A DNA stretch of 64,000 bases from a virus. Under the pieces are notes generated by a model that did no database searches, was not told the DNA's origin, and was given only the letters and a program-made list of their open reading frames with translations. Below are positions 11,738-54,990 of the stretch, in pieces. The DNA lies in IMG/VR virus record IMGVR_UViG_3300050821_009780, positions 32,001 to 96,000 of that record, one strand, 5' to 3'. The translations under genes were made by a program, and so were the position numbers. Each line of letters begins with the position of its first letter. The first letter of the stretch is position 1.

Positions 11738-12127
11738 CTAATCGGCGGAGCGCCGGTCCAGCCAGCGCTGCACGAACGCGGGCTTCTTCTCCAGCCACCA
11801 CACGACGCAGCGCCAGCACATGACGGCGGCGGCCCCGCCGAGGACGAAGATGTCGATCCACGCGGAGGTGACCGGGGTGATGAGGTGCGGGAAGAACACC
11901 AGGAGCGAGCCGGGGACCAGGATGCAGAGCAGCACGATGTCCTTGAGGACGATGGTGGTGCCCACCCGGTCCTTCCACCACGGGGAGGTGAGGGTGTACT
12001 GGACGACGAACAGCAGGAACGCGGCAGTGGCGGCCAGGGTCACATCGCTGACCGCCGTGAGCATCCACGACGGGACCATCGCGTAGGCGGTCACCGTGTC
12101 GTGGACCGGGGCGTGCGATGCCATCAT
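11738..12127 (-). CDS. Membrane protein, holin-like (3 TM)
   Basis: Start re-called at ATG 12127; three hydrophobic segments; FVVQYTLTSPWWKDRVG motif; in the lysis cluster. Confidence 0.6.
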   Translation of the reverse strand: MMASHAPVHDTVTAYAMVPSWMLTAVSDVTLAATAAFLLFVVQYTLTSPWWKDRVGTTIVLKDIVLLCILVPGSLLVFFPHLITPVTSAWIDIFVLGGAAAVMCWRCVVWWLEKKPAFVQRWLDRRSAD

Positions 12128-16503: not shown

Positions 16504-17808
16504 CTACCGCACCGGGACGGGGCCGAGTTCCTCCTCGCGGCGGCAGGCCATGGCGGTGTCGTAGACCTGCGCGCCGACGCCGTTGCTGGTCACCTCGTCG
16601 CGGATGCGGCGGAAGAGGTTCTCCACCACCACCGACCAGTCGCACAGCTTCGGGATCAGCTCGGCGGCCTTCTGCCCCTTATCCCTGGCCTCGCTGCGGT
16701 GCGTGTAGATGTGCCAGATGGTCTCGGCGAGGTGCTCCACGCTGACCTTGGCATCGTGCGCGCCCCACGGGCAGTATCCGAAGGTGGCGCCGAGCTTGTA
16801 GTCCAGCGGGTAGGCCCAGTCCCCGCCCATCCACATGGTGTGGCCGCCGAAGTTGGTGGCCGCGACCGCCCCGGCGGTGGACATGAACTCCAGGGCGGGC
16901 AGGTTCTTGCCCTCGCCGCGGCTGGGGGCGAGCAGGCAGTGGCTGGCGGCGTACATGTCCTTGACGCCCTGCACGTCCAGGGACGACACGAACACCTTGA
17001 TGCCGGCGTGCGCGAACGGCAGGTTCAGCTCAGGGAACAGGGTGCCGGGAAGGCTGGTGTGCAGCGCGAGGCGGGCATCGGCGAACGCCCCGCCCTTCTC
17101 GTCCTTGAGCTTGTGCCACGCCTCGATGACGAGCCACGGCTGCTTGCGGGCGTTGAGCGCCCCGTGCATGAGGAACTGGAACCGGTCACTGTGCCAGTCG
17201 CGCTCGACCGGGCGCCACAGCGAGGAGTCGTAGCCGCCCTGGAGGATGCCGGACTTGACGGTCTTGGGGATGAACGGCGCGAACGAGGCGAGGGACACCG
17301 GGTCGTAGCCGAGCACCAGATCGTACCAGCGGAGCCGCTCGCGGAAGCTGGACTTCTGCTTGGCGTGCGGGTACAGCCCGGAGGCCGGGGGCTTCCGGCA
17401 GTTCCGGCAGCCGGGGACGCCCAGCTCGTTCTTGCCGTTCTCCTTCAGGTGCCTGGCGCACGGGCGGAGGATGGGCACGCCATCCTCGCGGAACTCCGGC
17501 GGCGGGGCGAACTCCCACATGGACCAGCCGACCGCGACCCGGGCGCTGGCCCGGGCCTCGCGGGTGATGAGCAGGTGGTCGGGGTCCCAGTGGTTGATGA
17601 GCAGGTCCCACGGGCCGTACAGGGTCTTGCCGAACAGCGGCATGAGGTCGGCCGGGATGGGCACATCCAGCCAGGTGGGCTGGACGTACACGTCGCAGCC
17701 CCAGCGGTGCAGCGCGCGGACCAGGCCGAAGCCGTCGTTGCCGTATCCGGAGTACTGCGAGAAGGGGGCTAAAGCCTTAACACAGACCTTCAAAGGCCGG
17801 TTAAGCAT
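16504..17808 (-). CDS. Glycosyltransferase, GT-B fold (GT4-like)
   Basis: SGYG N-terminus, ARK, LLAPSRGEGKNLPALEFM (E-x7-E). Confidence 0.9.
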   Translation of the reverse strand: MLNRPLKVCVKALAPFSQYSGYGNDGFGLVRALHRWGCDVYVQPTWLDVPIPADLMPLFGKTLYGPWDLLINHWDPDHLLITREARASARVAVGWSMWEFAPPPEFREDGVPILRPCARHLKENGKNELGVPGCRNCRKPPASGLYPHAKQKSSFRERLRWYDLVLGYDPVSLASFAPFIPKTVKSGILQGGYDSSLWRPVERDWHSDRFQFLMHGALNARKQPWLVIEAWHKLKDEKGGAFADARLALHTSLPGTLFPELNLPFAHAGIKVFVSSLDVQGVKDMYAASHCLLAPSRGEGKNLPALEFMSTAGAVAATNFGGHTMWMGGDWAYPLDYKLGATFGYCPWGAHDAKVSVEHLAETIWHIYTHRSEARDKGQKAAELIPKLCDWSVVVENLFRRIRDEVTSNGVGAQVYDTAMACRREEELGPVPVR

Positions 17809-17814
17809 TGGGCA

Positions 17815-18402
17815 TCACCTCTTCGTCGCGGCCAGATAGGCCGCTATCTCGTCGGAGAACTGCTCGTACCAGCCCAGCGAACCATTGCACTTCGTGCACA
17901 ACAGTCCCCGGACACACTTGCCGCAGGAAGTAGGGCCTGAGCAACAGCGCCTATCGTGATCAACAGCAAAGTGCATGAACACGAACTTAGAACCGCGACG
18001 CTCGCCCTCAGCCATCTCCTGCAAGGACCGACTGCATATCCGACAACGTCCTTGCTGCTCGTCGTACATGCGCCAGTAGTCATCAGGATCTATGTTGAAC
18101 TGACGACGCAGCTTCCGCTCCCAGCGGGCATCAGCTTCCCGGGCTACCCGCTCAGTATCACGAGCATGCCAGGAAGCCTTCGCGTACTCGCGCCTACAGT
18201 CCTTGCACGGCACCATGAGACGACCATCTGGATACTTATAGAAGTCGTCTCTATCCTTCTCACGAGTGCACTGATAGCACGTCTTACGAGTCGGACGACA
18301 GGAAGGCCCGCAGTGCTTCTGAACTGAGCCTGTCGGCTGAAACTCTTCTCCGCAGCCAACGCACACCCTAGTAGGCCACTTAAAGTCAGGAGGTCTAACC
18401 AT
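17815..18402 (-). CDS. Endonuclease VII-family free-standing homing endonuclease
   Basis: YWRMYDEQQGRCRIC..AVDHD..VRGLLCTKCNGSLG; visibly lower GC than its flanks. Confidence 0.9.
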   Translation of the reverse strand: MVRPPDFKWPTRVCVGCGEEFQPTGSVQKHCGPSCRPTRKTCYQCTREKDRDDFYKYPDGRLMVPCKDCRREYAKASWHARDTERVAREADARWERKLRRQFNIDPDDYWRMYDEQQGRCRICSRSLQEMAEGERRGSKFVFMHFAVDHDRRCCSGPTSCGKCVRGLLCTKCNGSLGWYEQFSDEIAAYLAATKR

Positions 18403-18871: not shown

Positions 18872-19134
18872 GGCTCCACTGCCAGCTGCTCCCCCTCGCA
18901 CGACTGCCTCCCGGCCACGTACTCGCCCCGCGCGAACAGCTCCGCGCAGAGATTGAGGTAACTGCACTCAGCGTCGGTCAGGGCCGTGGAAAAGCCCACC
19001 AGGTGCGTGCTGGCATCTGCGGGAACAGGCCCGGCTACCTGAGCCTGCTCCGCCTGCAGTGCGAGTCTCCGCAGGTCCGGTGTGCTCAGGTGAGCGTACG
19101 GTCCCGCCATGACTGGAGAATCGGTGAATCCCAT
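18868..19134 (-). CDS. Hypothetical protein
   Basis: SD GGAGG 5 nt before ATG. Confidence 0.6.
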   Translation of the reverse strand: MGFTDSPVMAGPYAHLSTPDLRRLALQAEQAQVAGPVPADASTHLVGFSTALTDAECSYLNLCAELFARGEYVAGRQSCEGEQLAVEP

Positions 19135-19199
19135 CGCAGCCTCCCCAGGTGCGACTGAAGACTTCCCGGACCGGGCTCCCCACCACGGGGCCCGGTCAG

Positions 19200-19325
19200 G
19201 TTGACTCTGTTTCTACACTCTAGTATCCCTCAGTGTCAACGGTTCAGGGATACTAAGGGCTACTGAGTAGGCGGCGATCACCCGAAGTTGACTCAAGACA
19301 ACGTTGGAACTAGGCTCAAGCCTAG
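19200..19325. promoter_or_regulatory. Divergent promoter/operator region
   Basis: Plus strand TTGACT-N17-TAGGCT (19288-19316); minus strand TTGACA at 19239-19234; inverted repeat TAGTATCCCT/AGGGATACTA (19221-19255); two copies of the 16-bp palindrome. Confidence 0.75.
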
Positions 19326-19411
19326 CCGGTACCGCTCACGGCTGAGCACGGCCGGCTCCGGAATTAGATTCCTCCGGACCCTGCGGGAATCTTGAACAGA
19401 GATGTACCCGA

Positions 19412-19855
19412 ATGACAGGAACCATCACCACCAACGCCCCCCTGCGCGGACTGCTGCGCACCGCACGGCGCCACACGCGGCTGTCGCAGAAGGAAGCGGC
19501 AGCGAAGGCCGGGGTGTCCTCGGCCTGGTGGAAGCGCGTGGAATCCGCCTACGAAACCTCAGTCTCCGCCGAGACCCTGGCCGACATGCTCGACGCCGTC
19601 GGCGTCCTGCCGGGCCACCTGGACGACCTGGGCGAGCACGTCCTGGCCGAGCTGATCATTGCCCGGCAGTCGTTCCGCGACACGGTCACCTCCTCCCAGG
19701 AAAGCCTGGAGGAGTACCTCATGAACGCCCCCGCTGCGGACGACCTGCGGCACGAACTTATCACCTACGTCCGCACGAGAAGCGTGCTGCGTACTATACG
19801 TAGTGACCCGTTCACCGACCAGTTCCATCCCGATTCGGCGGAGAAGCACAGATGA
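19412..19855 (+). CDS. XRE-family HTH transcriptional regulator
   Basis: LLRTARRHTRLSQKEAAAKAGVSSAWWKRVES. Confidence 0.88.
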   Translation: MTGTITTNAPLRGLLRTARRHTRLSQKEAAAKAGVSSAWWKRVESAYETSVSAETLADMLDAVGVLPGHLDDLGEHVLAELIIARQSFRDTVTSSQESLEEYLMNAPAADDLRHELITYVRTRSVLRTIRSDPFTDQFHPDSAEKHR

Positions 19856-20334
19856 TATTCAACGCAGTCACCGCCGTGACACTCGCCCCGACGGCAGTCA
19901 GCGCATCCTACTCGGCCCTGCAGGCAGAGACGAGACTGCTCATCCAGCTGAGCTTCTACGCCGCCCTGCTGTTCCTGGTGCTCTACACCATCCGCACCGC
20001 CTGGTGGCACACCGTGCACGGCCGGACGCTCGCGGCGCTGGCAGCCGCCTTCATCATCGTGATGCTGCGCGTCATGCTGGTGTACTGGCACCTCCTCGGC
20101 TCCCCCGACAAGGCCCCCGACGCCCTGGACTGGGGGTCCACCAGCTGCCTGCTGCTGGCTCCGCTGGCGTTCCTCACGATGAGCTGGCAGCTGGCGCGCA
20201 AGCCGGTCCGGCGCTGGGCGGCGAAGCTGCGGCCGAGGCACCCGGCACCGGGCGACGACCCGCTGGGTCCCGGGGCACCGGAGAAGAAGCTGAGCGAGTA
20301 CCCGGAGCGCAACCCGCGGCACAGCCAGGACTAG
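19852..20334 (+). CDS. Membrane protein (3 TM), paralog of 11738..12127
   Basis: FLVLYTIRTAWWHTVHGR versus FVVQYTLTSPWWKDRVG; ATGA-coupled to the XRE gene. Confidence 0.75.
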   Translation: MIFNAVTAVTLAPTAVSASYSALQAETRLLIQLSFYAALLFLVLYTIRTAWWHTVHGRTLAALAAAFIIVMLRVMLVYWHLLGSPDKAPDALDWGSTSCLLLAPLAFLTMSWQLARKPVRRWAAKLRPRHPAPGDDPLGPGAPEKKLSEYPERNPRHSQD

Positions 20335-20849
20335 GACAGCGCGTCGGTCCAGCCGCCGATGTACACCGCGTAGACCGCGCTCCCGGACAGCATCCAGTCG
20401 CCGTCGGGCACGGCTGTCCAGTCCGGCTCGGTGAGCAGCGCGCAGCCGAAGGTCACCAGGTCGCCCCAGGCGACGGTGTCCGCATCGCGGCGGTGCAGGT
20501 GGTTGTTGACGGCGGTGAACAGGGCGTTGGCCCGGTTGGCGGTGTCGGAGCTGGTGCGGATGACGCCCCCGGCCTGGTCGCGCACCGGGTCGGCCCAGAT
20601 GTCCACCCGGAGCCGGCGGAATCGCTGGCTGCCGCCCAGGGGCGGCGCGGACCAGCCGCCGTAGTCGGAGCAGACCACGGCCAGCTGGCTGGTGCCCTTC
20701 ATGTTGACCAGGATGTCCCCGGCGAACAAGTACGGCTGCCCCTGGTTGCCGCCCACCGGGTCGGACAGGCTGAAGCTGCCGAGCAGCGAGGTCACGTCGC
20801 TGAACTGGGACAGGTACTTCCGGCCGCCGGTGCCGACATCGTCAGGCAC
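20331..20849 (-). CDS. Tail terminator/completion protein (putative)
   Basis: C-terminal part of ORF 20331..21377 from GTG 20849; RLRVDIWAD strand; position among neck genes. Confidence 0.6.
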   Translation of the reverse strand: MPDDVGTGGRKYLSQFSDVTSLLGSFSLSDPVGGNQGQPYLFAGDILVNMKGTSQLAVVCSDYGGWSAPPLGGSQRFRRLRVDIWADPVRDQAGGVIRTSSDTANRANALFTAVNNHLHRRDADTVAWGDLVTFGCALLTEPDWTAVPDGDWMLSGSAVYAVYIGGWTDALS

Positions 20850-20985
20850 GGTACTCGTCCCCCGCGCGCCTGACCGCCTGGGCGGTGCAGGCCGCGCAGC
20901 GGCAGCGGAAGAAGCGCCGCCGCTTCCGGGGCGGCGGCTCCTGCTCGGGCTCCTGCTCGGGCTCCTGCGGTTCCTCGTCGGCCAT
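20842..20985 (-). CDS. Small acidic/basic Cys peptide
   Basis: MADEEPQEPEQEPEQEPPPRKRRRFFRCRCAAC..; overlaps both neighbours. Confidence 0.45.
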   Translation of the reverse strand: MADEEPQEPEQEPEQEPPPRKRRRFFRCRCAACTAQAVRRAGDEYRA

Positions 20986-21326
20986 AACGTCCCTACCAGG
21001 ATGCCGGTGTCGGTGCCGTCGCCGGCAACCCAGGTGAACTCGCCCTCGGCCCCGACCGGCCGGTGCATCATGCAGCGGCAGCAGTAGGTGGCCCCGTAGA
21101 AGCCGGGCCGCCGGGCGTACGTCTCGCACAGCGCCAGGCCCATGGTGGTGACCGCGCCGCACTCCGGGTCGTGGTGGAGGTAGGAGCGGTACACCGGGCG
21201 GACGAACCCCTTGGCCCGCTCCTCCTCGCTGAGCACCAGGTACTTGCTGTTCATGCCCTTGGGCTCGCGGTCGGCCCCGTGACCCAGCTCCGGGTCGTCC
21301 GGGTCGGTGGTCAGTCCCGTACCCAT
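20985..21326 (-). CDS. Phage Zn-binding protein whose expected stop is a TTA codon
   Basis: YLVLSEEERAKGFVRPV..CGAVTTM..ETYAR.P.FYGATYCC.C..H.PVG..GEF.W..VGT, then reads on in frame to 20331. Confidence 0.7.
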
Positions 21327-21327
21327 G

Positions 21328-21798
21328 TCAGCCTCCCGAGCGCGGCGCAAGGCCGCCGGCCGGGGCGGCACCGCCACTGCCGTCGGTCACGTAGTCCCAG
21401 ACCGCCTGCCGCACGCCCCGCTCGAACTGGGGGCCGCCGCCGTCGGTGTAGGCGCCGAAGAAGTTGTGGCCTCCCTCGGGATGGTTGTGCGTGGCGCGGT
21501 GGCCGCGGGCCAGCTCGTAGATGCCGGGGTAGCGGGAGTAGTCGATCTCTCCCTCCCAGTCATCGATGCCGGCGCTGGACCGGGTGATGCCGGACCCCTT
21601 GAGGTACCCGGTGATCACGTGCACGTGGGCCTCGGTGAGGACGGCGCCGAGCGCGAGCGCCGCCTCCATGGCGAGCAGGGTCTCCCCGGCCGGGCCCTTG
21701 ATGAGCCGGTCCAGCTCCGGCCCGGCGGCGTGGGGGAAGCCGTAGAGCTCGGAGTTCACCTGCCAGGAGACGCTGACGTGGCTGAAGCTGATGGCCAT
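21328..21798 (-). CDS. Neck/tail completion protein (HK97 gp10-like, putative)
   Basis: VHVITGYLKGSG..YPGIYELARG; neck position. Confidence 0.6.
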   Translation of the reverse strand: MAISFSHVSVSWQVNSELYGFPHAAGPELDRLIKGPAGETLLAMEAALALGAVLTEAHVHVITGYLKGSGITRSSAGIDDWEGEIDYSRYPGIYELARGHRATHNHPEGGHNFFGAYTDGGGPQFERGVRQAVWDYVTDGSGGAAPAGGLAPRSGG

Positions 21799-21824
21799 GC
21801 CTGTCCAATCGGGGGCTTGCCGGG

Positions 21825-22259
21825 CTAGTGGATGTGCTGGATAACGGCGATGATGACCTCGGTCACGATGACGACAACAGATATCACCGCACCGATGATG
21901 AGCATGCGCTGCTGCACGACCGCCTGGTCTTTCCGGCGGATCTCCTTCTCGGTCCGGGCCCCGGTCTCGATGACCGACAGCCGGTCCTCGATGGCGCGCA
22001 GCCGGAGATCGACCGAGACGGCATGCTGGTCGAACAGGTCGCGTCCTACCTTGGTCCCCGCGATATCCCCCATCGCGTCCCGGAACTCGTTCATCCCGCC
22101 CAGCCGCACGGCGAGGTCAGCCGCGGTCTGGGACACCTGGGCACGCTGCTCACTGAACCGCCGGTCCATCTCCCCCTGCAGCTCGCGGTAGATGTGGTCG
22201 ATGTACTCGCGGAAAGAAACGCCGTCAGCTGGCGCCTCCTGGTGACGATGGATGGCCAT
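21825..22259 (-). CDS. Coiled-coil protein with a C-terminal TM helix
   Basis: GMNEFR motif; terminal hydrophobic helix. Confidence 0.75.
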   Translation of the reverse strand: MAIHRHQEAPADGVSFREYIDHIYRELQGEMDRRFSEQRAQVSQTAADLAVRLGGMNEFRDAMGDIAGTKVGRDLFDQHAVSVDLRLRAIEDRLSVIETGARTEKEIRRKDQAVVQQRMLIIGAVISVVVIVTEVIIAVIQHIH

Positions 22260-22275
22260 GCCTGTCCCATCGGGG

Positions 22276-22611
22276 CTATCTGGGCTGCGCCAGGTGCTTC
22301 TTCAGCTCCTCGTGCCGCTTGTCGATGTGCAGCTTGATGTCCCCGGAGGTGAGCCCGGTGGTGACGAGGGAGAACGTGGCCGCGAACAGCGGGATGACGG
22401 TGAGCATCATGGCGACGGCGATGGCGTGCGGGGCCCAGCCGTGCGGGGCGACATCGCCGTAGCCGACCGTGGTGGCGGTGGTGACGGCGAAGTACAGGCC
22501 CACGGCAGCGGAGACATGCTGGGCGGCGGCGAACAGCAGGCCGAGAACGATGTCCAGTGCCACGGCGGCGGCCATGATGCCCGCCGCCCGCCTGTGGTGC
22601 CTGTTGCCCAT
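22276..22611 (-). CDS. Miniature 2-TM potassium channel (KcsA/Kcv-like pore)
   Basis: 111 aa: TM1, GLYFAVTTATTVGYGDVAP, TM2. Confidence 0.92.
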   Translation of the reverse strand: MGNRHHRRAAGIMAAAVALDIVLGLLFAAAQHVSAAVGLYFAVTTATTVGYGDVAPHGWAPHAIAVAMMLTVIPLFAATFSLVTTGLTSGDIKLHIDKRHEELKKHLAQPR

Positions 22612-22973
22612 CAGCCCCCCTGCCCCCCCAGCAGTGCCACTATCTGCTCCAGCAGCTCGCGCTCGGACTTCTCGGGCCTGGCCTTCTCGTGGTGGATGTT
22701 GCACCAGGGGGTGCCGCTGACCTTGTGCCGCCCGATGCGCAGGCAGCCGGGCTCGTGGCAGTTCAGGCTGTGCCACAGGCCGAGGATCATGCCGCTGAAC
22801 CCGAGCGCGGTGATGATCATGGGGCCGACGCCGGACACGAAGTCGTAGTTCTGCGACGCCTGGGTGTCGATGCCGAAGAAGTGCGCCCAGCCGTGCTCGT
22901 ACATGACCAGCGCCCAGGCGCCTCCTGCCCCGAGGAGAATCCCGGAGAGGAACAGGACCGCGAACCGCCTCAC
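22611..22973 (-). CDS. Membrane protein with a Cys/His motif
   Basis: Two TM helices then CHEPGC.RIGRH..WCNIHH; TGATG-coupled to the channel gene. Confidence 0.7.
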   Translation of the reverse strand: MRRFAVLFLSGILLGAGGAWALVMYEHGWAHFFGIDTQASQNYDFVSGVGPMIITALGFSGMILGLWHSLNCHEPGCLRIGRHKVSGTPWCNIHHEKARPEKSERELLEQIVALLGGQGG

Positions 22974-23461
22974 GGGGCACCTCCGGGGAAGGGCGTCGGG
23001 CTGCCGGGACCGGACTGGGCCGCGACCTCGACGACCTGGGTCTCGCAGTGCGCCGCGCCGCGGTAGGACTGGAGCTGATCGGCCGGGTTGCGCATCTCGA
23101 AGGTACCGGAGACGGGGCCGGAGACGCACAGGAACCGGTCGCCCGCCTTCACCAGCGGCACCCCGCCGGCATCGGTGACCGGGTCGTAGTACATGACGCC
23201 GAACCGGTCCTGCGGGCGGCCCGCCGTCAGCGGCGGCGGCTGATCCTTGCCGGGGCGCAGCCGGCCGAGGGCGATGCGGCAGGCGAGCAGGCCGGGCTGG
23301 TCGAGCACCACGTCCACCACGTCGGGGACCGCGTTCCAGGTGATGGACATGCCGCCGGACTCCTCCAGCACCGGGAGCAGCCGCAGCACCTGCACCACCG
23401 AGGAGTACAGGCCGCGGACCGGGGACAGGCCGGCCTGGTAGGGCTGGTAGGGAGTCGTCAC
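22970..23461 (-). CDS. Head-to-tail stopper/closure protein (putative)
   Basis: Follows the adaptor; beta-rich with KAGDR..HCE.QV.E pattern. Confidence 0.6.
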   Translation of the reverse strand: MTTPYQPYQAGLSPVRGLYSSVVQVLRLLPVLEESGGMSITWNAVPDVVDVVLDQPGLLACRIALGRLRPGKDQPPPLTAGRPQDRFGVMYYDPVTDAGGVPLVKAGDRFLCVSGPVSGTFEMRNPADQLQSYRGAAHCETQVVEVAAQSGPGSPTPFPGGAP

Positions 23462-23534
23462 GGGTACCTCACGCTTGGGGCAGGAGCAGAGCCCCAGGTC
23501 ACGTCACTGCCCCTGCCGACGTTGACCATCGGGC

Positions 23535-24143
23535 CTACCCGGTGCCGGGGTCGCCGGGGAACGATTCTGCATTCACGTCCGGGCCGAAGCCGGGGATGTC
23601 CACCTTGTTGAAGTCGCCGGGCCCGAGGAGCACCATCTCCCCGGTGCGGCGGTCCTCGCGCAGCATGATGCCGATGTCCCGGTCGGCGCTGTCGCCGCTG
23701 CGGTCGAAGCAGCGGAGCTGGCCGAAGAACACCCCGCCGGCCCGGGTGCGCTTGGACAGGTACTGCACGGCGGTATCCCACAGCTCGACGCCGGTCGAGC
23801 CGATGCCCAGTTCCTGGGCCTGCACGTTGCGGACCTGGATGGGCGGCGGCTTGCTGAAGGTGTAGTCGCCGATGGTCTCGCTCATGGCCGGGCTGGCGAC
23901 CATCTGCTGGTAGGGCTGCTTGAGGTAGGTCCAGTCGGCGTAGGCGAGGATGCCGTACACGGCGAGCTGCTGGTCGTCGCTGTTGAGCGCGGCGAAGTCG
24001 GAGTTGTTGCCGTAGTTGACCTCGGTGACGGTGGTGAAGATGATGGTCGCCTGGATCAGGGCGGACGTGGCGTAGCTGGTGTAGCTGGTCTCCGGGCGGC
24101 CGGAGAACTCGGCCAGCTGCGCGAGGGACGGGACCGGTATCAC
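23535..24143 (-). CDS. Head-to-tail adaptor
   Basis: GTG 24143; P..L..FSGRP..; SETIGDYTFSK. Confidence 0.75.
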   Translation of the reverse strand: MIPVPSLAQLAEFSGRPETSYTSYATSALIQATIIFTTVTEVNYGNNSDFAALNSDDQQLAVYGILAYADWTYLKQPYQQMVASPAMSETIGDYTFSKPPPIQVRNVQAQELGIGSTGVELWDTAVQYLSKRTRAGGVFFGQLRCFDRSGDSADRDIGIMLREDRRTGEMVLLGPGDFNKVDIPGFGPDVNAESFPGDPGTG

Positions 24144-24574
24144 CCCAGCAGCCTCCGGACGTACTCGTAGGCGGCGTAATCGCTCGCGCTGGCGGTGTGC
24201 ACGCCCGCGTTGCCGCGGTGGTGCTTGACGCAGAGCAGCTCCAGGTTCTCCGCGCTCTCGACCCACGCCCCGACGCCCATGGTGGAGACCCCCGGGTAGG
24301 CAGGCTCCAGCAGCGCCAGGTCAACGCTGTTCAGCGTCGCGAACTCGATAATCCGGTGATGGCACTCCAGCGGGTTGGCGTTGTCGCACTCGCTGGTATC
24401 ACCGCCGCGGTAAGCCTTGGCGAAGTCGCAGTAGTACGTCCCCGCCTTGCGGCGCAGCGCCTTGTAGGCGTGGAAGTCGGCGTAGTGCGGATCAGAGGTG
24501 CGCGGGCCGTGCTCGGGATAGGACACCGAGTACGAGTGGGTCACCTTCTGGACGTGCGCCGGGACATCCGTCAT
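24140..24574 (-). CDS. HNH-like protein
   Basis: LECHH..IEF..WVESAENLELLCVKHHRG..GVH. Confidence 0.6.
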   Translation of the reverse strand: MTDVPAHVQKVTHSYSVSYPEHGPRTSDPHYADFHAYKALRRKAGTYYCDFAKAYRGGDTSECDNANPLECHHRIIEFATLNSVDLALLEPAYPGVSTMGVGAWVESAENLELLCVKHHRGNAGVHTASASDYAAYEYVRRLLG

Positions 24575-24590
24575 GTCCTGGTAATCGGGA

Positions 24591-24983
24591 CTACAGCAGG
24601 GCGGAGATGTCCACGACCGGGCCGAGGGTGTGCGGCACGGAGACCCCGGTCACCGGGACCGGGTTGAGGATGTCCGGGGTGTTCAGCCGCTGGGTGATCG
24701 TGTAGGTGAAAGACGGGGACACCGCGTCGGTGCAGACAACGGTGACCGGGACCGCGGTGCCGTTGGTCACGGTGAGCACGGTGCTGCCCTCCAGCACCGC
24801 CCAGCCGGGAATGTACGCCGGCTCGCTCGGGGTCAGGATGATGTCGCCGTCGAGCAGCTCGCCGCCGGTGCCGACCAGGGACTCGCCGGTGACGGTGATG
24901 ACGCCCAGCCAGAACGGGAACGGGACACGGGTGACCACGGCGTCGGCGGCGGTGCCGGCATCGCTGTCGGAGATCGCGGTCAT
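24591..24983 (-). CDS. Hypothetical Thr/Val-rich protein, possibly virion
   Basis: Beta-strand-like composition; operon-consistent. Confidence 0.6.
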   Translation of the reverse strand: MTAISDSDAGTAADAVVTRVPFPFWLGVITVTGESLVGTGGELLDGDIILTPSEPAYIPGWAVLEGSTVLTVTNGTAVPVTVVCTDAVSPSFTYTITQRLNTPDILNPVPVTGVSVPHTLGPVVDISALL

Positions 24984-24990
24984 GGCCCTG

Positions 24991-25641
24991 CTACCAGGGG
25001 ACCAGGGACTGGGAGCCGTCCCCGGCCGCGTGCGCGGGCACCGAGACGCCGCGGGACCAGCGGCTGGCCGCGGCGGTGCTCAGGGGGATCTCCGCCCCCG
25101 GCGGCGGCGCGGCACCGGGCCAGGGGCCGAAGTCGAAGAAGATCCGGCCGTACCGGGCGTACTGCTCGGCCTTGGACAGCCTGATCCAGGTCAGCGCGGA
25201 CTCCCACTTGGGGTGCTTCGGGCCGATCTGTAGCATCTCGCCGACCTGCCACACCTTGCCGCCCCAGGTGAAGCCGTCCTCGACGAAGTGCACCATGATG
25301 GTCTTCTCGCTCGGGTCCGCAATCTGGGTGACATCGCGGACCTGCTGCTCGGCGGCGAGGTTGGCGGCGAGCACCTGGGCGTGCTCCCGGTCGCGGGCCG
25401 CCTGCTCCTGGGCGGTCAGCGGGCGCTGCACCGCCTCCCGGACGGCCTCCAGGTCCACCCGGGGGCCGAGGTCCACGGAGCCGAGGGGCAGGCCGCACTC
25501 GCCGCAGAAGCGGGTCCCTGCGGCGTTGGCGTGGCCCAGCGGGCACTCGGCCGAACCGGGCTGCGCCGGGGCGGCAGGGGCCGCCTCCGGGCCGTCCAGC
25601 CGCCTTGCCGCCTTGACCACGTCCACCAGGTAATCCGCCAT
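24991..25641 (-). CDS. Zinc-ribbon protein
   Basis: ECPLGH.N..RFCGECG; HFVEDGFT; ATG 25641 lies 10 nt after CGAT. Confidence 0.75.
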   Translation of the reverse strand: MADYLVDVVKAARRLDGPEAAPAAPAQPGSAECPLGHANAAGTRFCGECGLPLGSVDLGPRVDLEAVREAVQRPLTAQEQAARDREHAQVLAANLAAEQQVRDVTQIADPSEKTIMVHFVEDGFTWGGKVWQVGEMLQIGPKHPKWESALTWIRLSKAEQYARYGRIFFDFGPWPGAAPPPGAEIPLSTAAASRWSRGVSVPAHAAGDGSQSLVPW

Positions 25642-27856: not shown

Positions 27857-29014
27857 CTAGTCGATCAGGCCGCCTGCCCAGTAGGAACTTGAGGCCGCAG
27901 ATCCGTTCGAGACGATGCCAGTCGCGACCAACATCTGTTCCGGGCGGTACACGACCGGGAGCAGATGCCACTCAAGCAAATATTGACGAGCTGACGGGTC
28001 CTTTTCCTTCCAGGTCTTGGCGTACTTGCCCGCGAACCCGGAGGGGGCCTCCTCGTCGGCGGTCGGGCCGATCAGCAATTCCAGGGGGCGCTGGTCGGTG
28101 TAGTTGCCGAGGTAGAGCTGGCCGTCGGGGACGAAGAAGGTGAGGTTCCCGCTGTCGTTCTCGTAGACCTGCTCGACGGTGGTCCAGGTGAGGCCCATGA
28201 AGCCGGACAGGATGCCGGTGGAGAAGTACTCGTCCTTCATCCGGTCGCTGATCATGGTGGCGGGGATGTTGACGGTGGACCCGGCGCCGCCGTGCACCCA
28301 GGCTTCCATGAGGGAGGCCATGGTGACGGAGGTGGCGAAGACCTCGCGGGCGGGGACCCGGCCGTGGATCTGGACGATGCGCTTCCAGGAGCGGACGTCC
28401 TCGATGATCTGGAACGGGCTGGCGTAGGTGACGGTGCCGGTGCCGGCACCCAGGTTGACGTTGGCGCTGCCCAGGTCGGTGGCCGCGCCGGTGCCGGTGT
28501 GGTAGGTCAGGGACGTGTTCTGCACCCAGGGCGCGGCCGGGGTGACGAAGTGCGAGCTGGGGAACTTGAAGTCCACCGTCGCCTGGACATCCGCGTAGTT
28601 GTACGCGATGCCGCCGCCGAGGGCCTGCCAGATGCTCCACTCGGCGAAGTTATCGAACCGCATGTTGAGATCGTTGATCTCCCGCAGCACCGACTTCTCC
28701 GCGTTGAGGCGGGCAATCTCGCCCGGCTCGCGCAGCCACCGCAGGGTGGTCGGCTCGAAGACCTTCTTCTCGCGGAGGTAGATGAACGCCGCGGACTCCT
28801 GGCTCCGGCCCAGGCGGCTGATGATGTGCGCCTCGGAGTTGGGGACGTTCGGCTTGGCGACCATCCGCGAGCCCTTGATCACGTCCCACGTGGCGTAGGG
28901 GTACGGGTGCGGGGTCTGGTCCAGGCGGTTGAGCATCATGAGCGACTCGGGGGTCACCCACTTCTCCACCACGCCCCTCAACACCATGGGCTCTAGTAGT
29001 GATATGTCGGGCAC
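27857..29014 (-). CDS. Major capsid protein
   Basis: 385 aa after protease and decoration genes; lambda gpE-like pattern (EW.IWQAL.G, VDF..P..H, LPV..P); SD AAGGAG. Confidence 0.92.
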   Translation of the reverse strand: MPDISLLEPMVLRGVVEKWVTPESLMMLNRLDQTPHPYPYATWDVIKGSRMVAKPNVPNSEAHIISRLGRSQESAAFIYLREKKVFEPTTLRWLREPGEIARLNAEKSVLREINDLNMRFDNFAEWSIWQALGGGIAYNYADVQATVDFKFPSSHFVTPAAPWVQNTSLTYHTGTGAATDLGSANVNLGAGTGTVTYASPFQIIEDVRSWKRIVQIHGRVPAREVFATSVTMASLMEAWVHGGAGSTVNIPATMISDRMKDEYFSTGILSGFMGLTWTTVEQVYENDSGNLTFFVPDGQLYLGNYTDQRPLELLIGPTADEEAPSGFAGKYAKTWKEKDPSARQYLLEWHLLPVVYRPEQMLVATGIVSNGSAASSSYWAGGLID

Positions 29015-44961: not shown

Positions 44962-45180
44962 TCACTCGTCCGACAGGTACAGCCCGGGCACCTTCTCCAG
45001 CAGCCGGGTCACCATCTCAAGATCGGGGCCGGTGACGGTCAGGCCCTCGCGGTGCAGCTGCTCCAGCGAATCAGGCCCGAAGTCGAACTCCGCCTGGCTG
45101 CCGCGACCGTACTCGGCCAGCGCAATGAACGCGTTCGCGTAAGAGACGGTGCTCGCGGCACGGTACCGGACGGTGGTCAC
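44962..45180 (-). CDS. Hypothetical protein
   Basis: 72 aa; GTGA-coupled to MuF. Confidence 0.65.
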   Translation of the reverse strand: MTTVRYRAASTVSYANAFIALAEYGRGSQAEFDFGPDSLEQLHREGLTVTGPDLEMVTRLLEKVPGLYLSDE

Positions 45181-46187
45181 GTCCCTAGTACCTTCCGCAG
45201 CCGGGACAGTGCCTGACCCAGCTCGTGGGTGGCGGCCTTGAGGAAGTGCAGCAGCGCCTGGTACTTGTCCTCGGGCAACTCCCGGACATCGGAGGCGGCC
45301 AGGAGGCTGCCGGAACCTGGCCGGTCCGGGCTACCTGAGACTTTCTGATGGGGAGCAGCAGCAGTCTTGGCGCCCCCCTGGCCGCTCCCTGATGGTACCT
45401 GCCCGGCCTGGGGCGGAGGAAGATCAGCGACAATCACTGCGCCGCACCGGCACCGGGGATGCCGGGGCGGGCCGCGCAGCACGCCGTGGTAGAGCCGGGG
45501 CGGGCGGGTGAGCCGCCCGTGCCCGGCCAGGTCGGCCGGCTCCCCGGCCGGGAAGTTGCCGTGCAGCGGGACGACCATGCCGTTCAGGGCCCGGCACCAG
45601 TGGCAGGTGCGGGCATCGGGCGGCGCGGGCCAGGAACTGCACCGCCACTGCTTCCACACCCGCTCCCCGGACTCCTCGCGCAGGGTGCCGTCGGCGATCT
45701 CCTTCTCGGTGCGAGCGGCGACGGCAGCGGACTCCAGGGACAGCCGGTTGCGGAGCGCCAGCTCGAAGCCGACCTGGAGGACGGCAGCCCGGACGTGCGC
45801 GGCGCGCTCGCGGGCGGACTCGGCGACCGGGGCCTGGCGGGGCGGGGTGACGCCCGCCCGGAAGTGCCGGGTTTCCACCGAGGTGTGAGCGGCCCGGATC
45901 TCCGCCCGCAGGCGGCCGAGCGCATCATAGGAGCGGTCCACGTCGTCCACCAGCCAGGACAGGTAGTCGTGCGGTGGCCCCCCGGCGGCAGCCCACGCCT
46001 GGCGCACCGCCTCGGCAGCGGTCTCCCGGGCGCGATCGAGGGTCTCCTGGAGCACCGCGTCCACGTCCGGGCGGGTCAGCAGGGCGGAAGCGGACCCCTG
46101 CGGGTTGTTCTGCACCAGCAGCCCGATATACCGGGCGGCGTAGGCGAACGCCTCACGGACGCTGCGGCTCAGCTCCTCCGGGGTCAC
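45177..46187 (-). CDS. MuF/SPP1 gp7-like minor head protein
   Basis: KQW..DARTCHWCRALNG..PPRHPRCRC. Confidence 0.85.
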   Translation of the reverse strand: MTPEELSRSVREAFAYAARYIGLLVQNNPQGSASALLTRPDVDAVLQETLDRARETAAEAVRQAWAAAGGPPHDYLSWLVDDVDRSYDALGRLRAEIRAAHTSVETRHFRAGVTPPRQAPVAESARERAAHVRAAVLQVGFELALRNRLSLESAAVAARTEKEIADGTLREESGERVWKQWRCSSWPAPPDARTCHWCRALNGMVVPLHGNFPAGEPADLAGHGRLTRPPRLYHGVLRGPPRHPRCRCGAVIVADLPPPQAGQVPSGSGQGGAKTAAAPHQKVSGSPDRPGSGSLLAASDVRELPEDKYQALLHFLKAATHELGQALSRLRKVLGT

Positions 46188-46476
46188 GCTGCGGATGATC
46201 GCCCGACGCCGCCTCGTAGGCGGCGTGCAGCTGCTCGTACTGCCGATAGTCCACCCGCCCGGAGTGGAAGGCGCTGTTCACCTCGCCGAAGCTGCCCGGC
46301 GGCGGCAGCTCGCCCAGCTGCCCGATGGCATCGGCGAGCCTGGTCTGGAAGGCGGTCTTGCCGGCGGCGCGGGGCCAGTTCATGCCGCGGACCTGGGCGC
46401 AGGCTTCGGCGAGGCTGATGCGCCCGTTCTCCAGGTCGTCGAGCAGCGCGGACAGCCGCTTCTCCTGATCGCTCAC
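46153..46476 (-). CDS. Small helical protein coupled to the zeta-like gene
   Basis: GTG 46476 overlaps the upstream TGA. Confidence 0.65.
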   Translation of the reverse strand: MSDQEKRLSALLDDLENGRISLAEACAQVRGMNWPRAAGKTAFQTRLADAIGQLGELPPPGSFGEVNSAFHSGRVDYRQYEQLHAAYEAASGDHPQRDPGGAEPQRP

Positions 46477-49022
46477 GGTGCCCCCGGAGACTCGATGCCG
46501 GCCACCACCATGGCCGCCTTCCATGCATCCTCGCTGAACCCCGGCTCCGTGCTGGCCTGCTCGCGGACAGCATCCAGATCCAGGTCGTCCATCCCCGTGC
46601 CGGCGGTCATAGCTACCTGCCCCTTCTCCGCTGCCCGGGCCTGCGCCTCGGTAGCCCCTACGTACTCCATGATGTGGTAGTCCGGGTGATCGAACTTCTC
46701 CGTGTTCCAATCCGGTGCGGCCAGCGCCGGGTCGAACGGGAAGACCTGCTTGTCCCGGAACCCGAGCGACGCGTACAGCTTGGGCAGCACGGGACCGTAC
46801 GCCTCGATGTAGTTCGCCCCGTGCTCACTGACGGCCAGCCTGAGCAGCGCCAGCCCGGTGCCCTTATCCCCGGAGGTGTTGAACAGCCCGGTCGGCTCGA
46901 TGCGCCCATCCTTGTGGTCGTGGATGAGTATCCCGGCCTTCCCGCCGGCTGCGAGGATAGCTGTCATGCCCGCGTTCCTGATGTCCGCTGCGGTGTAGTG
47001 GTTGACGAAGGCACTGTACGGGCTGCCCTCGAATGCCTTGTTGAGCGTGCTCGCGAACTCCTCGGGGCTGGCCAGCCGAGTGCCGGGCGGCCCCGACCCG
47101 GCGGCGCGGGCTGCCTCCTGCGCCCGGGCCTCCTTGCTGCCGGGCTGCAGCGTGCGCAGCAGCGCCTCCACCGACGGGATGCCGGCGGGCACGGACGGCG
47201 CGGACTTCTCCGCCAGCCTGGGCGCGGTCCCGTTGTTGTCCCAGAGCTGCCAGTCGGCGAACCGGGACTTCAGCGCCTCGAAGACGAGCTTGTTGCGGGT
47301 GATGCCGCGGACGACCTCCTGGGAGCGGATCAAGTCGGGCGGCACGTACCGGCCGCCGAGCGGATCGCGTCCCTCCCGGTAGGCTTCCAGGCCCTGCCGG
47401 TAGCGCTTAGCGGCGCGCTGCACGGCCCGTTCCACCGGGCTATCCACGAACACGCCGCGAGTGGTGTACCCGTGCTGCTCCAGGGCAGCGAGGCGCTGGG
47501 AGACGCTGGCCTCGTCGGCCATGGTGATATCCCAGGCGATGTTCTTGCCGCGCTCGGCCAGCAGCCGGGCGGCCTGGTCGGCCAGGTAGGACGACTCGTC
47601 GTGCACCAGCGGGGAGGCTTCCAGCGGGGACAGCCCGGCGACCTCGGGGACCAGCCCGCGCCGGGCCAGCTCGGCCTTGAAGTCGTCGGGGTTGACGACG
47701 GCGTAGTCGCGCAGGCTGATGTCCGGGATCTGCTTGAGCACGGTGGTCTTGCCGGCCCCGCCGAGCCCGCCCATGACCAGCGCCCGGTGCTCGGACGGCA
47801 CGGATACCTGCCTGGCCAGGAAGTCCTGGAGGATCTGCTGGTGCTCCAGGGCGCGCTGCGGCAGCCAGGAGTAGCCGCCGTCGCGGGAGTGCAGCACGGA
47901 GGTGGCCTGGCCCTTGCCGGCGGCGGCGTTGACCTTCTCCTGCACGTCGCGGGCGTGCACGGCGTACTGCTCGTCGGTGAGCGGCGCGTACTGGCCGGGG
48001 GCGGCCTGCCCGGCGGCAGCGGCACGGGCGGCGGCCTGCGCGGCGCGGGCGCCGGACTCGGCCTTGCGCAGCTCCCCGAGGTGGTCGCGGAGATCGGACT
48101 GCCGCTGGCTCTCCTCGCGCTGGGCGTAGCCTTCCAGCCGCCGGTTGGCCTGATCCAGCGCGGAGTCCTGGGGAGAGGGTGCCTGCTGCGGCAGCGGCTG
48201 CGGCACGTGCGCGTGCGCGTGCCGGCTGAGGGTGTCCCCGGCCAGCGGGGTGACGAACCGGGAGCCGAGGTGCGGGTGGACCGCCTGCGCGCCCGTGGGG
48301 GGCGGCGGCAGCTTAGGCGGCTCGGGCTGCACGGCCGGGTGCTGCGGGCCCTCCTGAAGCCGCTCCGCCGCGCGGGCGGCCCGTTCGGGGACGGCCCCGG
48401 TGAGGCGGCGGGTGCGGGTGGACCTGACCCCGGACTGCTTGTCGATGTCCCGCATCCGGGACTGGACGTGGGAGATGCTATCGCGGACAGACTGCTTCTG
48501 CTGGTCGGTCTCCGCACGGGGCAGCAGCTGCTCGGCGGCGGTCCGGTGCGCCTCGTGCAGCTGCTCGTAGCCCTTGGCCAGAGCGGGACTATCCGGGTCG
48601 GACAGGTGCTGGTGGGCGGCGTCCACGTGCCCGGCGAACTTCTCAGCAGACGGCTTGTCGATATCGTGGAAGCGCTGGCTGCCCCACAGCGCCTGGCCCT
48701 TCTTCGCCCACGCCTGCTGCGCGGCCAGCCACTTGGCCTGGCTGGTGTCGTCGATGACGTGGCCGGGGGCACCCTGGACGAAGTGCGGGTCGTGGCCGCC
48801 GGGGTGCGGCAGGTCGCTGCGCAGCTCGGTGTGCGCCTTGACGTGCTCGGGGATGACCTTGCCCTGCTTGGTCTTCTGCAGCCGGGAGAACGGCCGGACC
48901 TGGAAGCTGGCCAGCTCCAGCGCCTCCGGGTCGGCGGCCAGCTCCAGCGCCCGCCCGGCGCTGATCTCCTCGACCAGATCGCGGGCCAGCGCGGCCAGGG
49001 CCTCCTCGGCGGGACTGGTCAC
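46473..49022 (-). CDS. Zeta-toxin-family P-loop kinase with a C-terminal GNAT-like domain
   Basis: MGGLGGAGKTT, VNPDDFK, VHDESS, WDITM, QRA..R, GGRYVP, WDN; then GLFN..GTG..LL..AV..GA..EAY..LPKLY..LGF. Confidence 0.88.
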   Translation of the reverse strand: MTSPAEEALAALARDLVEEISAGRALELAADPEALELASFQVRPFSRLQKTKQGKVIPEHVKAHTELRSDLPHPGGHDPHFVQGAPGHVIDDTSQAKWLAAQQAWAKKGQALWGSQRFHDIDKPSAEKFAGHVDAAHQHLSDPDSPALAKGYEQLHEAHRTAAEQLLPRAETDQQKQSVRDSISHVQSRMRDIDKQSGVRSTRTRRLTGAVPERAARAAERLQEGPQHPAVQPEPPKLPPPPTGAQAVHPHLGSRFVTPLAGDTLSRHAHAHVPQPLPQQAPSPQDSALDQANRRLEGYAQREESQRQSDLRDHLGELRKAESGARAAQAAARAAAAGQAAPGQYAPLTDEQYAVHARDVQEKVNAAAGKGQATSVLHSRDGGYSWLPQRALEHQQILQDFLARQVSVPSEHRALVMGGLGGAGKTTVLKQIPDISLRDYAVVNPDDFKAELARRGLVPEVAGLSPLEASPLVHDESSYLADQAARLLAERGKNIAWDITMADEASVSQRLAALEQHGYTTRGVFVDSPVERAVQRAAKRYRQGLEAYREGRDPLGGRYVPPDLIRSQEVVRGITRNKLVFEALKSRFADWQLWDNNGTAPRLAEKSAPSVPAGIPSVEALLRTLQPGSKEARAQEAARAAGSGPPGTRLASPEEFASTLNKAFEGSPYSAFVNHYTAADIRNAGMTAILAAGGKAGILIHDHKDGRIEPTGLFNTSGDKGTGLALLRLAVSEHGANYIEAYGPVLPKLYASLGFRDKQVFPFDPALAAPDWNTEKFDHPDYHIMEYVGATEAQARAAEKGQVAMTAGTGMDDLDLDAVREQASTEPGFSEDAWKAAMVVAGIESPGAP

Positions 49023-49144
49023 GACTCGCTCCAGGTGCAGTTATTGCAGCACAGGAACTCCTCGCCGGAAGCTGTAACCTCGGTGCCTAGGTCAGCGCTG
49101 CCGCACCGGGGGCAGTGCTCCTCGCACTCAGCGGAATCCGGCAC
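49019..49144 (-). CDS. Small zinc-ribbon peptide (41 aa, not in ORF track)
   Basis: HCPRCGS..LCCNNCTWSE; fills the gap with overlaps. Confidence 0.5.
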   Translation of the reverse strand: MPDSAECEEHCPRCGSADLGTEVTASGEEFLCCNNCTWSES

Positions 49145-50723: not shown

Positions 50724-50769
50724 ACCGAGGTAGATCGGTGCCAAGCGGGCAGCTTATCCCCGCTAATCC

Positions 50770-54701: not shown

Positions 54702-54990
54702 CCCAGTCGAACCCCCAGCGCGGCTCGTACTCCACGCTCTCGCCCGAAGCCAGGCGGAGCGGGGCCTCCTCGGGGGCGTACCGGTGGCCGGGAACGCTCC
54801 AGTAGTGAGCCATGGCGCAGCGGCGGGACTCCCAGCACGCCCGCACACCCTCGTCGGTCAGGCCGCCGTTGATGCGCTCCTCGCCGCAGTACAGGTGCCA
54901 GTAGATGCCCTCATCTACCAGGGAGAAGCGGCGGGTGTACCCGGCGGGCAGCCGGTACGTCCGGTCGAGATCTAGGTAGTTCTGTGCCAC
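54694..54990 (-). CDS. Hypothetical protein
   Basis: GTG 10 nt after CGAT. Confidence 0.65.
   Translation of the reverse strand: MAQNYLDLDRTYRLPAGYTRRFSLVDEGIYWHLYCGEERINGGLTDEGVRACWESRRCAMAHYWSVPGHRYAPEEAPLRLASGESVEYEPRWGFDWDD

Follow-up and report, generated by a model that had tools for sequence, protein, structure and literature searches.

Two small overlapping membrane-protein genes, one of them for a miniature K+ channel, lie among the head-tail joining genes of a soil phage represented by a single IMG/VR virus record (IMGVR_UViG_3300050821_009780; 143,503 bp, rated 100% complete by CheckV). The stretch analysed here, called the window, comprises 64,000 nucleotides and corresponds to bases 32001-96000 of that record; coordinates below are those of the window unless the genome is named. 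The G+C content of the window is 68-70%, and nearly every gene is on the minus strand. Read in that direction, the two genes lie about 5 kb beyond the major capsid gene:

22276..22611, minus strand: K+ channel, 111 amino acids (aa), two transmembrane (TM) segments (translation; Pfam Ion_trans_2; phrog_14690; PDB profile matches)
22611..22973, minus strand: partner, 120 aa, two TM segments, a Cys/His zinc-knuckle-like hairpin and a C-terminal helix (translation, with a GTG start)

The channel consists, in order, of TM1, a pore helix, the TTVGYGD filter, TM2, and a short His/Lys-rich C-terminal helix. The translation starts with MGNRHHRRA and holds the segment TATTVGYGDVA, in which the selectivity-filter signature T-x-G-Y/F-G-D is present. 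Two hydrophobic helices flank the pore loop and, because only ~25 residues follow TM2, the protein is taken to have no gating domain. The Pfam model Ion_trans_2 (PF07885) matched with an E value of 1.2e-11 (44.8 bits, compared with a cut-off of 22.5), and phrog_14690 matched with E 2.9e-12, aligning channel residues 12-107 to profile positions 14-109 of 122. A profile of the channel family retrieved the pore domains of KcsA, TOK1, and K2P channels from the PDB, with E values of 1e-10 to 1e-13. These profile matches confirmed the open reading frame (ORF), as far as sequence can, as a member of the K+ channel pore superfamily, and bear out an earlier note on this DNA, in which a miniature channel with an intact TTVGYGD filter, two TM segments, and no gating domain had been described. 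The same note had called phage K+ channels uncommon, which does not hold for metagenomes: a profile scan found 231 IMG/VR stretches that encode a relative of the channel, 226 short homologues were found in metagenomes, and channels of this kind were already catalogued in 2018 (PMC6163359).

The TGA stop of the partner and the ATG start of the channel share one base (TGATG), in agreement with the earlier proposal that the channel is coupled to a two-TM protein with a Cys/His cluster. At its other end, the GTG start of the partner and the stop of the preceding gene overlap (GTGA), with a GGAGG motif 8 nt upstream. Channel and partner each have a G+C content at third codon positions (GC3) of 0.95, which resembles that of the neighbouring genes and indicates that both are real genes rather than chance ORFs. 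The AlphaFold model of the partner (predicted local distance difference test score, 89) starts with a TM hairpin (helices 2-32 and 41-70), continues with a small beta hairpin, and ends in a C-terminal helix. Cys72, Cys77, and Cys91 are invariant among 43 homologues, His73 and His94 are conserved in at least 90% of them, and Arg79 and Gly81 are also near-invariant. The motif can be written as Cys-x4-Cys...Cys-x2-His, with the modelled beta hairpin at residues 83-90; this pattern is typical of a zinc knuckle, and the zinc-knuckle-like element may bind Zn. A Foldseek search of the PDB with the partner model returned only weak rows of small zinc fingers (E of at least 2.5), and shape and feature searches of the ESM Atlas retrieved only the partner's own unnamed viral and actinobacterial clusters. 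No match to the partner was obtained in Pfam, PHROG, or PADLOC, nor did tblastn with the window partner and two family members (L033 and L008) yield a match among 50,697 GenBank phage records.

Conservation of the pair was assessed by scanning IMG/VR with the channel profile, from which 80 loci were kept, 47 of them high-GC and 33 low-G+C. The first three long contigs examined for the metagenomic channel homologues all carried a partner homologue directly upstream of the channel (3/3), and over the whole high-GC IMG/VR set the partner was found directly upstream, on the same strand, in 42 of 47 loci. The earlier note had named lack of conservation of the pair as grounds for rejecting its interpretation; the pair is strongly conserved. 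The five exceptions are L126, L136, L140/L141, and one locus cut by a contig end. In the first of these (L126, L136, and L140/L141), which belong to phages of ~61% G+C, a close channel homologue follows a gene for a MazG-like pyrophosphohydrolase and no partner is present. The 33 low-G+C channel loci, in Firmicute-type prophages, also have no partner. Altogether, 46 distinct pairs were collected, 25 of which have a 4-nt ATGA overlap, and the gene downstream of the channel is unrelated between pairs. The partner and the channel make up a two-gene membrane module, translationally coupled and conserved in actinobacterial phages. In a partner tree of 148 rows, linkage to a channel requires 3 changes, compared with 39 when the labels are shuffled; of the 32 rows in the starred clade that contains the window partner, 31 are channel-linked. 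Across pairs, partner identity correlates with channel identity (r 0.27, a value reached by 0 of 2000 permutations), which speaks for co-inheritance, not for co-adaptation.

Two variants of this arrangement were seen. At L148:3713-4369, the channel ORF is preceded, in frame and with no intervening stop, by a partner-like N-terminal part (one TM segment, NCGTKGCWR). The second half of the Cys/His motif is missing from this part, which may represent a fusion or a partner in decay. Pairs of a second clade, in which the channels are longer (~120-195 aa), carry a small gene with 3-4 TM segments directly upstream of the partner (L070:3408-3902, L169:3142-3561, and L172:28-357), forming a three-gene membrane unit. 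The L070 copy of this upstream gene matches the VIT1 family (PF01988, E 2.6e-7).

The partner belongs to a family that extends well beyond the channel-linked pairs. The partner profile matched 877 proteins in a collection clustered at 90%, and a profile search of 1.84 billion representatives defined 1,249 clusters at 50% identity, all of 72-189 aa; the best 150 profile matches included neither long nor fused proteins. Most members are ~90 aa long and have one TM helix and the same knuckle. When IMG/VR was searched with the partner as the seed, 74 loci were found, only 9 of which have a channel. The grouping in the partner tree indicates that the two-TM, channel-linked form is a specialised branch of the broader family. 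GTDB genomes add 46 members, all but one in metagenome-assembled genomes (MAGs) of Actinomycetota (among the taxa are Nocardioides, Acidimicrobiales, Solirubrobacterales, Mycobacterium, and Streptosporangiaceae), and none of the 46 has a mini channel adjacent to it. At L095, L110, and ~12 further Actinomycetota MAG loci, on Mb-scale contigs, relatives of the partner are convergent to the succinate dehydrogenase genes sdhB/sdhA; no phage genes were recognised at these loci.

Many channel-free, one-TM relatives of the partner are positioned next to lysis genes. The gene directly after the partner homologue, often overlapping it, encodes a GH25 lysin in L019, L028, and L038, a lysin of the Rv2525c-like glycoside hydrolase type in L036, L063, and L065, and a CHAP lysin in L050. 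In L034, L035, L042, and L062, the partner is followed by a TM-coiled-coil gene and then by a Phage_holin_2 gene. By our own tally, the lysis gene is within 700 nt of the partner in ~15 of the 22 loci that have a recognised lysis gene (binomial P 2e-7, given uniform placement within 4 kb). Some channel-linked pairs share this setting. One example is a complete genome of 99 kb (G001, locus L129), in which the genes for a TM-coiled-coil protein, a 3-TM protein, the partner, the channel, and a GH25 lysin (Pfam E 4e-24) follow one another, and the lysin start overlaps the channel stop. An Rv2525c-like lysin is encoded 0.7 kb downstream of the pair in L172, the channel stop in L169 is overlapped by the next gene, and Phage_holin_2-like genes, below the Pfam cut-off, occur just upstream of the pairs in L009 and L134. 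Among channel-linked pairs, the lysis-cassette setting is the minority of cases.

The selectivity filter is not maintained in all paired channels. GYGD is kept in 32 of 43, and GYG is lost in the remaining 11 (L005, L007, L008, L009, L011, L013, L070, L072, L132, L134, and L157), where the degenerate filters read TVGCD, TDGCD, TAGAD, or TSGNS, with TAGCN also among the Cys forms. Cys replaces the Tyr of GYG in 7 of the 11; a tetramer with such a filter would have four thiols along the axis of its pore. Degenerate filters make up 8 of the 9 paired channels that were found by way of the partner, a sampling route that introduces no bias as to the filter. Filter loss arose at least 3-4 times independently on the channel tree, with the Cys/His residues of the partner retained, and this repeated loss indicates that K+ selectivity is dispensable for whatever holds the pair together. 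It argues against a pure K+-uptake role, and favours a role in which the pore or membrane complex matters more than the ion.

The surroundings of the pair in the window, and the structural genes further away, include the following:

22970..23461, minus strand: head-tail connector (stopper-like), 163 aa, upstream flank (AlphaFold model from 30 homologues, with Foldseek)
21825..22259, minus strand: third gene, 144 aa, a long helical region and a C-terminal TM segment (translation)
21328..21798, minus strand: HK97-gp10-like neck/tail-completion protein, 156 aa, downstream flank (ESM Atlas)
19852..20334, plus strand: Phage_holin_2-family membrane protein, 1.9 kb from the channel (Pfam PF23778, E 2.1e-7; also given as 19939-20202)
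11783-12040, minus strand: second Phage_holin_2 (PF23778) paralogue, over the Pfam cut-off (genome search)
27857-29014, minus strand: major capsid protein (Phage_cap_E)
45177-46187, minus strand: MuF-like protein
49128-50744, minus strand: Mu-type portal
52695-54848, minus strand: weak terminase-like gene (phrog_17415, E 2.7e-6)

Searches of the two flanking genes against Pfam and PHROG, at E values up to 10, gave nothing useful; their identities were taken from structure because the sequence profiles were uninformative. The best Foldseek match of the stopper-like protein in the PDB was the connector of Mycobacteriophage Douge (E 8.5e-5), and further matches were to a gene transfer agent (GTA) particle, Mycofy1, Bxb1, PBSX XkdH, and the SPP1 gp6/gp15/gp16 connector entry. 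The 156-aa protein reached an ESM Atlas feature score of 0.95 against the HK97-gp10_like cluster, and TM-scores of 0.61-0.77 within the HK97 gp10 family. The location inside the head-tail joining genes, as given in the earlier note, is therefore supported by both flanks. The stopper-like gene recurs in four related phages (L211-L214, on contigs of 63-150 kb) and the gp10-like gene in L211-L213; several further neighbouring genes are likewise conserved. Between the two flanks is a variable slot (21799-22969), which holds a 46-aa ORF in L212, three unrelated genes in L211, and, in L213, an 85-aa Tad2-like gene (PF11195, the anti-Thoeris family). Neither the channel nor the partner was found in L211-L214. 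Since the relatives keep the flanks and carry other genes between them, the module is accessory cargo in this slot. The module and the connector genes form an operon-like chain of overlapping genes, an arrangement consistent with late expression. An HNH-endonuclease-like ORF (24140-24574, minus strand; phrog_8048, E 2e-4) lies within the connector block; its homologue is clear in L214 (E 1.6e-67), marginal in L212, and absent from L211 and L213, and this patchy distribution makes the ORF look mobile.

The third gene, which the earlier note had described as a coiled-coil TM protein following the pair, shares the cargo slot in this phage and is not conserved with the pair. Its coiled coil is a by-eye judgement. 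No family match was found in Pfam or PHROG, and neither the pair loci nor the rest of the genome yielded a homologue. The gene was considered as part of a conserved unit, and this was dropped: the downstream genes of other pairs are unrelated to it, as is a similar-looking gene in L064.

The recognisable minus-strand genes, in order, run from the weak terminase-like gene through the portal and the MuF-like protein to an ORF of 2,797 aa, and then to the major capsid protein. An 849-aa protein encoded between the portal and MuF genes (46473-49022, minus strand) contains a Zeta_toxin/AAA_33 kinase-like domain (E 1.6e-18), and an Endonuclease VII domain protein (PF02945, E 8.6e-14; 17815-18402, minus strand) adjoins a GT-B glycosyltransferase at 16504-17808. 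The Phage_holin_2 gene nearest the channel scored 32.9 bits in the genome search, over the cut-off, and is on a lone plus-strand island; a link between it and the module is possible. The sole endolysin candidate found in the phage is a 492-aa ORF with two PG_binding_1 domains (genome 109483-109884, minus strand). A megablast search with 12 kb of the window against the 50,697 GenBank phage records gave no match. Contigs identical to the module stretch are present in three soil metagenomes from separate studies (2018 and 2025). In one soil metatranscriptome, a 184-nt contig is identical to 22825-23008, bridging the stopper-like gene and the partner, and the channel itself is matched only by a partial match of 35 nt; this is a weak hint of transcription of the module, too weak to claim. 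A scan of 19000-25000 for consensus promoters and terminators gave nothing informative.

The explanation we favour, tentatively and at a little under an even chance, is that the pair is a late membrane-potential and lysis-timing module, in which the partner is holin-like and not a mere regulator of the channel. Lysis timing is favoured because the pair recurs in dozens of uncultured actinobacterial phages, sometimes directly before a lysin; the Phage_holin_2 gene 1.9 kb from the channel in the window phage also counts in its favour. In the proposed mechanism, the late head-tail-joining operon of this phage would have gained the module as accessory cargo, and the channel and partner would be made late, in similar amounts, and directed into the cytoplasmic membrane of the host. 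The channel would tetramerise to form a KcsA-like, K+-selective pore, while the zinc-binding knuckle and the C-terminal helix of the partner would face the cytoplasm. The partner would act with or on the channel, presumably through physical contact, and the pair would alter or sense the membrane potential that sets holin triggering and the access of endolysin to the wall, thereby serving as a lysis clock. Several holin-like TM proteins are common in actinophage lysis cassettes, and holin triggering is governed by the proton motive force (PMC9671378, PMC13056207). The partner may itself be holin-like. Its build fits that of holins, which are small, have at least one TM domain, and end in a charged cytoplasmic C terminus: in the model, the TM hairpin covers residues 2-70, and the C-terminal region beyond it is rich in Lys, Arg, and Glu. 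The earlier note had cast the partner as the regulator of the channel, a role that fits poorly with a family whose members mostly occur without any channel and directly before endolysins; for this reason, a holin-like protein in its own right is the more likely identity.

A number of observations weigh against lysis timing. About 37 of the 47 channel-linked pairs have no recognised lysis gene within 3 kb; some pairs precede the large terminase gene by ~0.8 kb, and others, with glycosyltransferase genes in the vicinity, are flanked by a head-tail adaptor and the major tail protein. The partner is wholly missing from three or four channel loci. Searches of the phage genome for GH25, Rv2525c-like, Amidase_2, and M23 domains found none, no endolysin was found near the module, and the only PG_binding_1 protein lies ~55 kb from it, outside the window. 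The partner matches no described holin family in Pfam or PHROG (the best holin PHROG, phrog_27838, gave E 0.1), and its cellular relatives adjoin sdhA/sdhB with no lysis genes alongside. Furthermore, a pore strictly selective for K+ would hold the membrane close to the K+ equilibrium potential instead of depolarising it, so that any effect on holin triggering could go in either direction. The earlier proposal of a late membrane module for lysis timing is upheld in part: it gains from the lysis-cassette context of the relatives and of some pairs, and loses from the window copy, which has no adjacent lysin.

A different function that we rate as fairly unlikely is superinfection exclusion or counter-defence, in which the channel, with the partner as a sensor or anchor, would alter K+ flux or membrane potential, and so block the entry of competitor DNA or offset a depolarising abortive infection. 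Two-gene defences that combine a sensor with an ion channel are known from actinophages (the RexAB-like Sbash gp30/gp31; PMC6426596), and the variable slot would suit such a function, given that L213 carries its Tad2-like gene at exactly this position and the other relatives carry unrelated small genes there. One carrier record is also classed as a provirus. However, the module is embedded, with overlapping genes, in a late structural operon rather than in an early or lysogenic locus, relatives of both genes are found inside lysis cassettes, the phage genome is 143 kb, and no PADLOC model matched the channel, the partner, or the third protein at E values up to 1.

A quite improbable role is that of an auxiliary metabolic gene for K+ homeostasis, whereby potential-driven re-entry or retention of K+ would sustain translation during virion production, and the partner would help the channel to insert or to remain stable. 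Complementation of K+-uptake-deficient cells is reported for small K+ channels of viruses and bacteria (Kcv, and KcsA-type work), and the canonical TTVGYGD is intact in the window channel and in 32 of 43 pairs. T4 and T5 alter the K+ conductance of their hosts, according to Greiner et al. (PMC6163359). Such a role is difficult to reconcile with the independent losses of GYG described above, in which the Cys/His residues of the partner were kept and which reached 8 of 9 channels in the partner-seeded sample; it also leaves the association with lysin and holin-like genes unexplained, and the partner family is mostly channel-free. Finally, the pair could be a neutral or decaying moron, hitch-hiking cargo with no role in the window phage. 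The module is missing from the four related phages with conserved flanking genes, and filters decay in some lineages, but a GC3 like that of other phage genes, intact frames, coupling overlaps kept in 46 distinct pairs, invariant key residues in both proteins, and the recurrence of identical sequence in soil metagenomes of 2018 and 2025 make this highly unlikely.

Lysis timing by the channel and a holin-like partner, the explanation favoured above, can be taken further, to a generalisation that we regard as doubtful: a lysis clock composed of a channel-derived pore and a membrane-anchored zinc-knuckle protein, acting as or on the holin, may let the ionic state of the membrane, and possibly cytoplasmic Zn or redox state, time lysis in many actinobacterial phages, and the partner family (>1,200 clusters at 50% identity) would then be a major unrecognised holin-like family. 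The phage K+ channels listed since 2018 now have a conserved genetic partner and a recurring lysis-cassette setting, from which concrete experiments follow. The analysis also reveals small membrane proteins that carry a Cys/His knuckle, form a very large family that has no name, and occupy holin positions in uncultured actinophages. If the lysis link is true, a classical ion-channel fold would be tied to the membrane-potential control of holin triggering, and a minimal, naturally paired channel-plus-partner system would become available for biophysics.

Among known systems, the closest to the window channel are the phage mini K+ channels listed by Greiner et al. in 2018, from Mycobacterium phages Myrna and Phabba, Streptomyces phage BillNye, Pseudomonas phage ventosus, and Acinetobacter phage ME3, for none of which a function is known (PMC6163359). 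Like these and the other channels of PHROG 14690, the window channel has two TM segments, a GYGD pore loop, a length in the range of 110-125 aa, and no gating domain, and it belongs to a group carried by large phages of Actinobacteria and others. Judged on its sequence, it is a distant member of this catalogued group: its identity to the BillNye group is ~28% (tblastn E 0.1). In BillNye, the channel gene belongs to a tRNA island, and nothing like the partner is encoded upstream of it; the window channel has a partner. In architecture, the window channel also resembles Kcv of the chloroviruses (PBCV-1, ATCV-1) and other algal-virus channels, with the same minimal succession of TM1, pore helix, filter, and TM2, and both are thought to act on the membrane potential of the host. 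Kcv belongs to giant viruses of eukaryotes, and is reported to be present in the internal membrane of the virion and to act at entry (PMC7019647). The window channel differs in that it is encoded in a late operon, is coupled to a partner, and has actinobacterial-type sequences as its nearest relatives. A tailed phage has no internal virion membrane.

The pH-gated KcsA of Streptomyces lividans likewise has an actinobacterial background, and it has the same 2TM pore fold as the window channel, by a profile match (E ~1e-10) that covers the pore helix, filter, and TM2; the window channel is ~50 residues shorter, does not have the long C-terminal bundle, is phage-encoded, and has an obligate-looking neighbour gene. 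The His/Arg-rich N-terminal residues ahead of TM1 (HHRRA) and the His/Glu/Lys-rich stretch after TM2 may resemble the cytoplasmic pH sensor of KcsA. The partner can be compared with holins, antiholins, pinholins, and the multi-TM-domain holin-like proteins of actinophage lysis cassettes (for example LysF1a/LysF1b; Gordonia cassettes), in that these are small membrane proteins and that the partner family and some of the pairs adjoin endolysins. Holin-like cassette proteins are small and late, with proton-motive-force-dependent timing and several TM proteins per cassette (PMC9671378, PMC13056207). In contrast to them, the partner has no sequence match to any holin family, and the window module has no adjoining lysin.

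The resemblance to lambda RexAB and to Sbash gp30/gp31 is one of organisation: two genes, borne by phages or actinophages, encode an ion-conducting membrane protein and a second protein that act through the membrane potential (PMC6426596), an action that is only proposed for the module. No homology was found (PADLOC gave nothing), and the channel of those systems has four TM helices and does not belong to the K+ pore family. Their partner is cytoplasmic (DUF4747) and their expression lysogenic, whereas the partner of the module is a membrane protein encoded in a late operon. In the literature searched, no K+-channel-derived pore and no zinc-knuckle membrane protein has been described as a lysis protein, no K+ channel has been linked to a lysis cassette, and no name was found for the partner family. 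Measured against these systems, the channel extends a group already catalogued, and what appears to be new is the conserved pairing and its association with lysis genes, to which the repeated loss of the selectivity filter adds.

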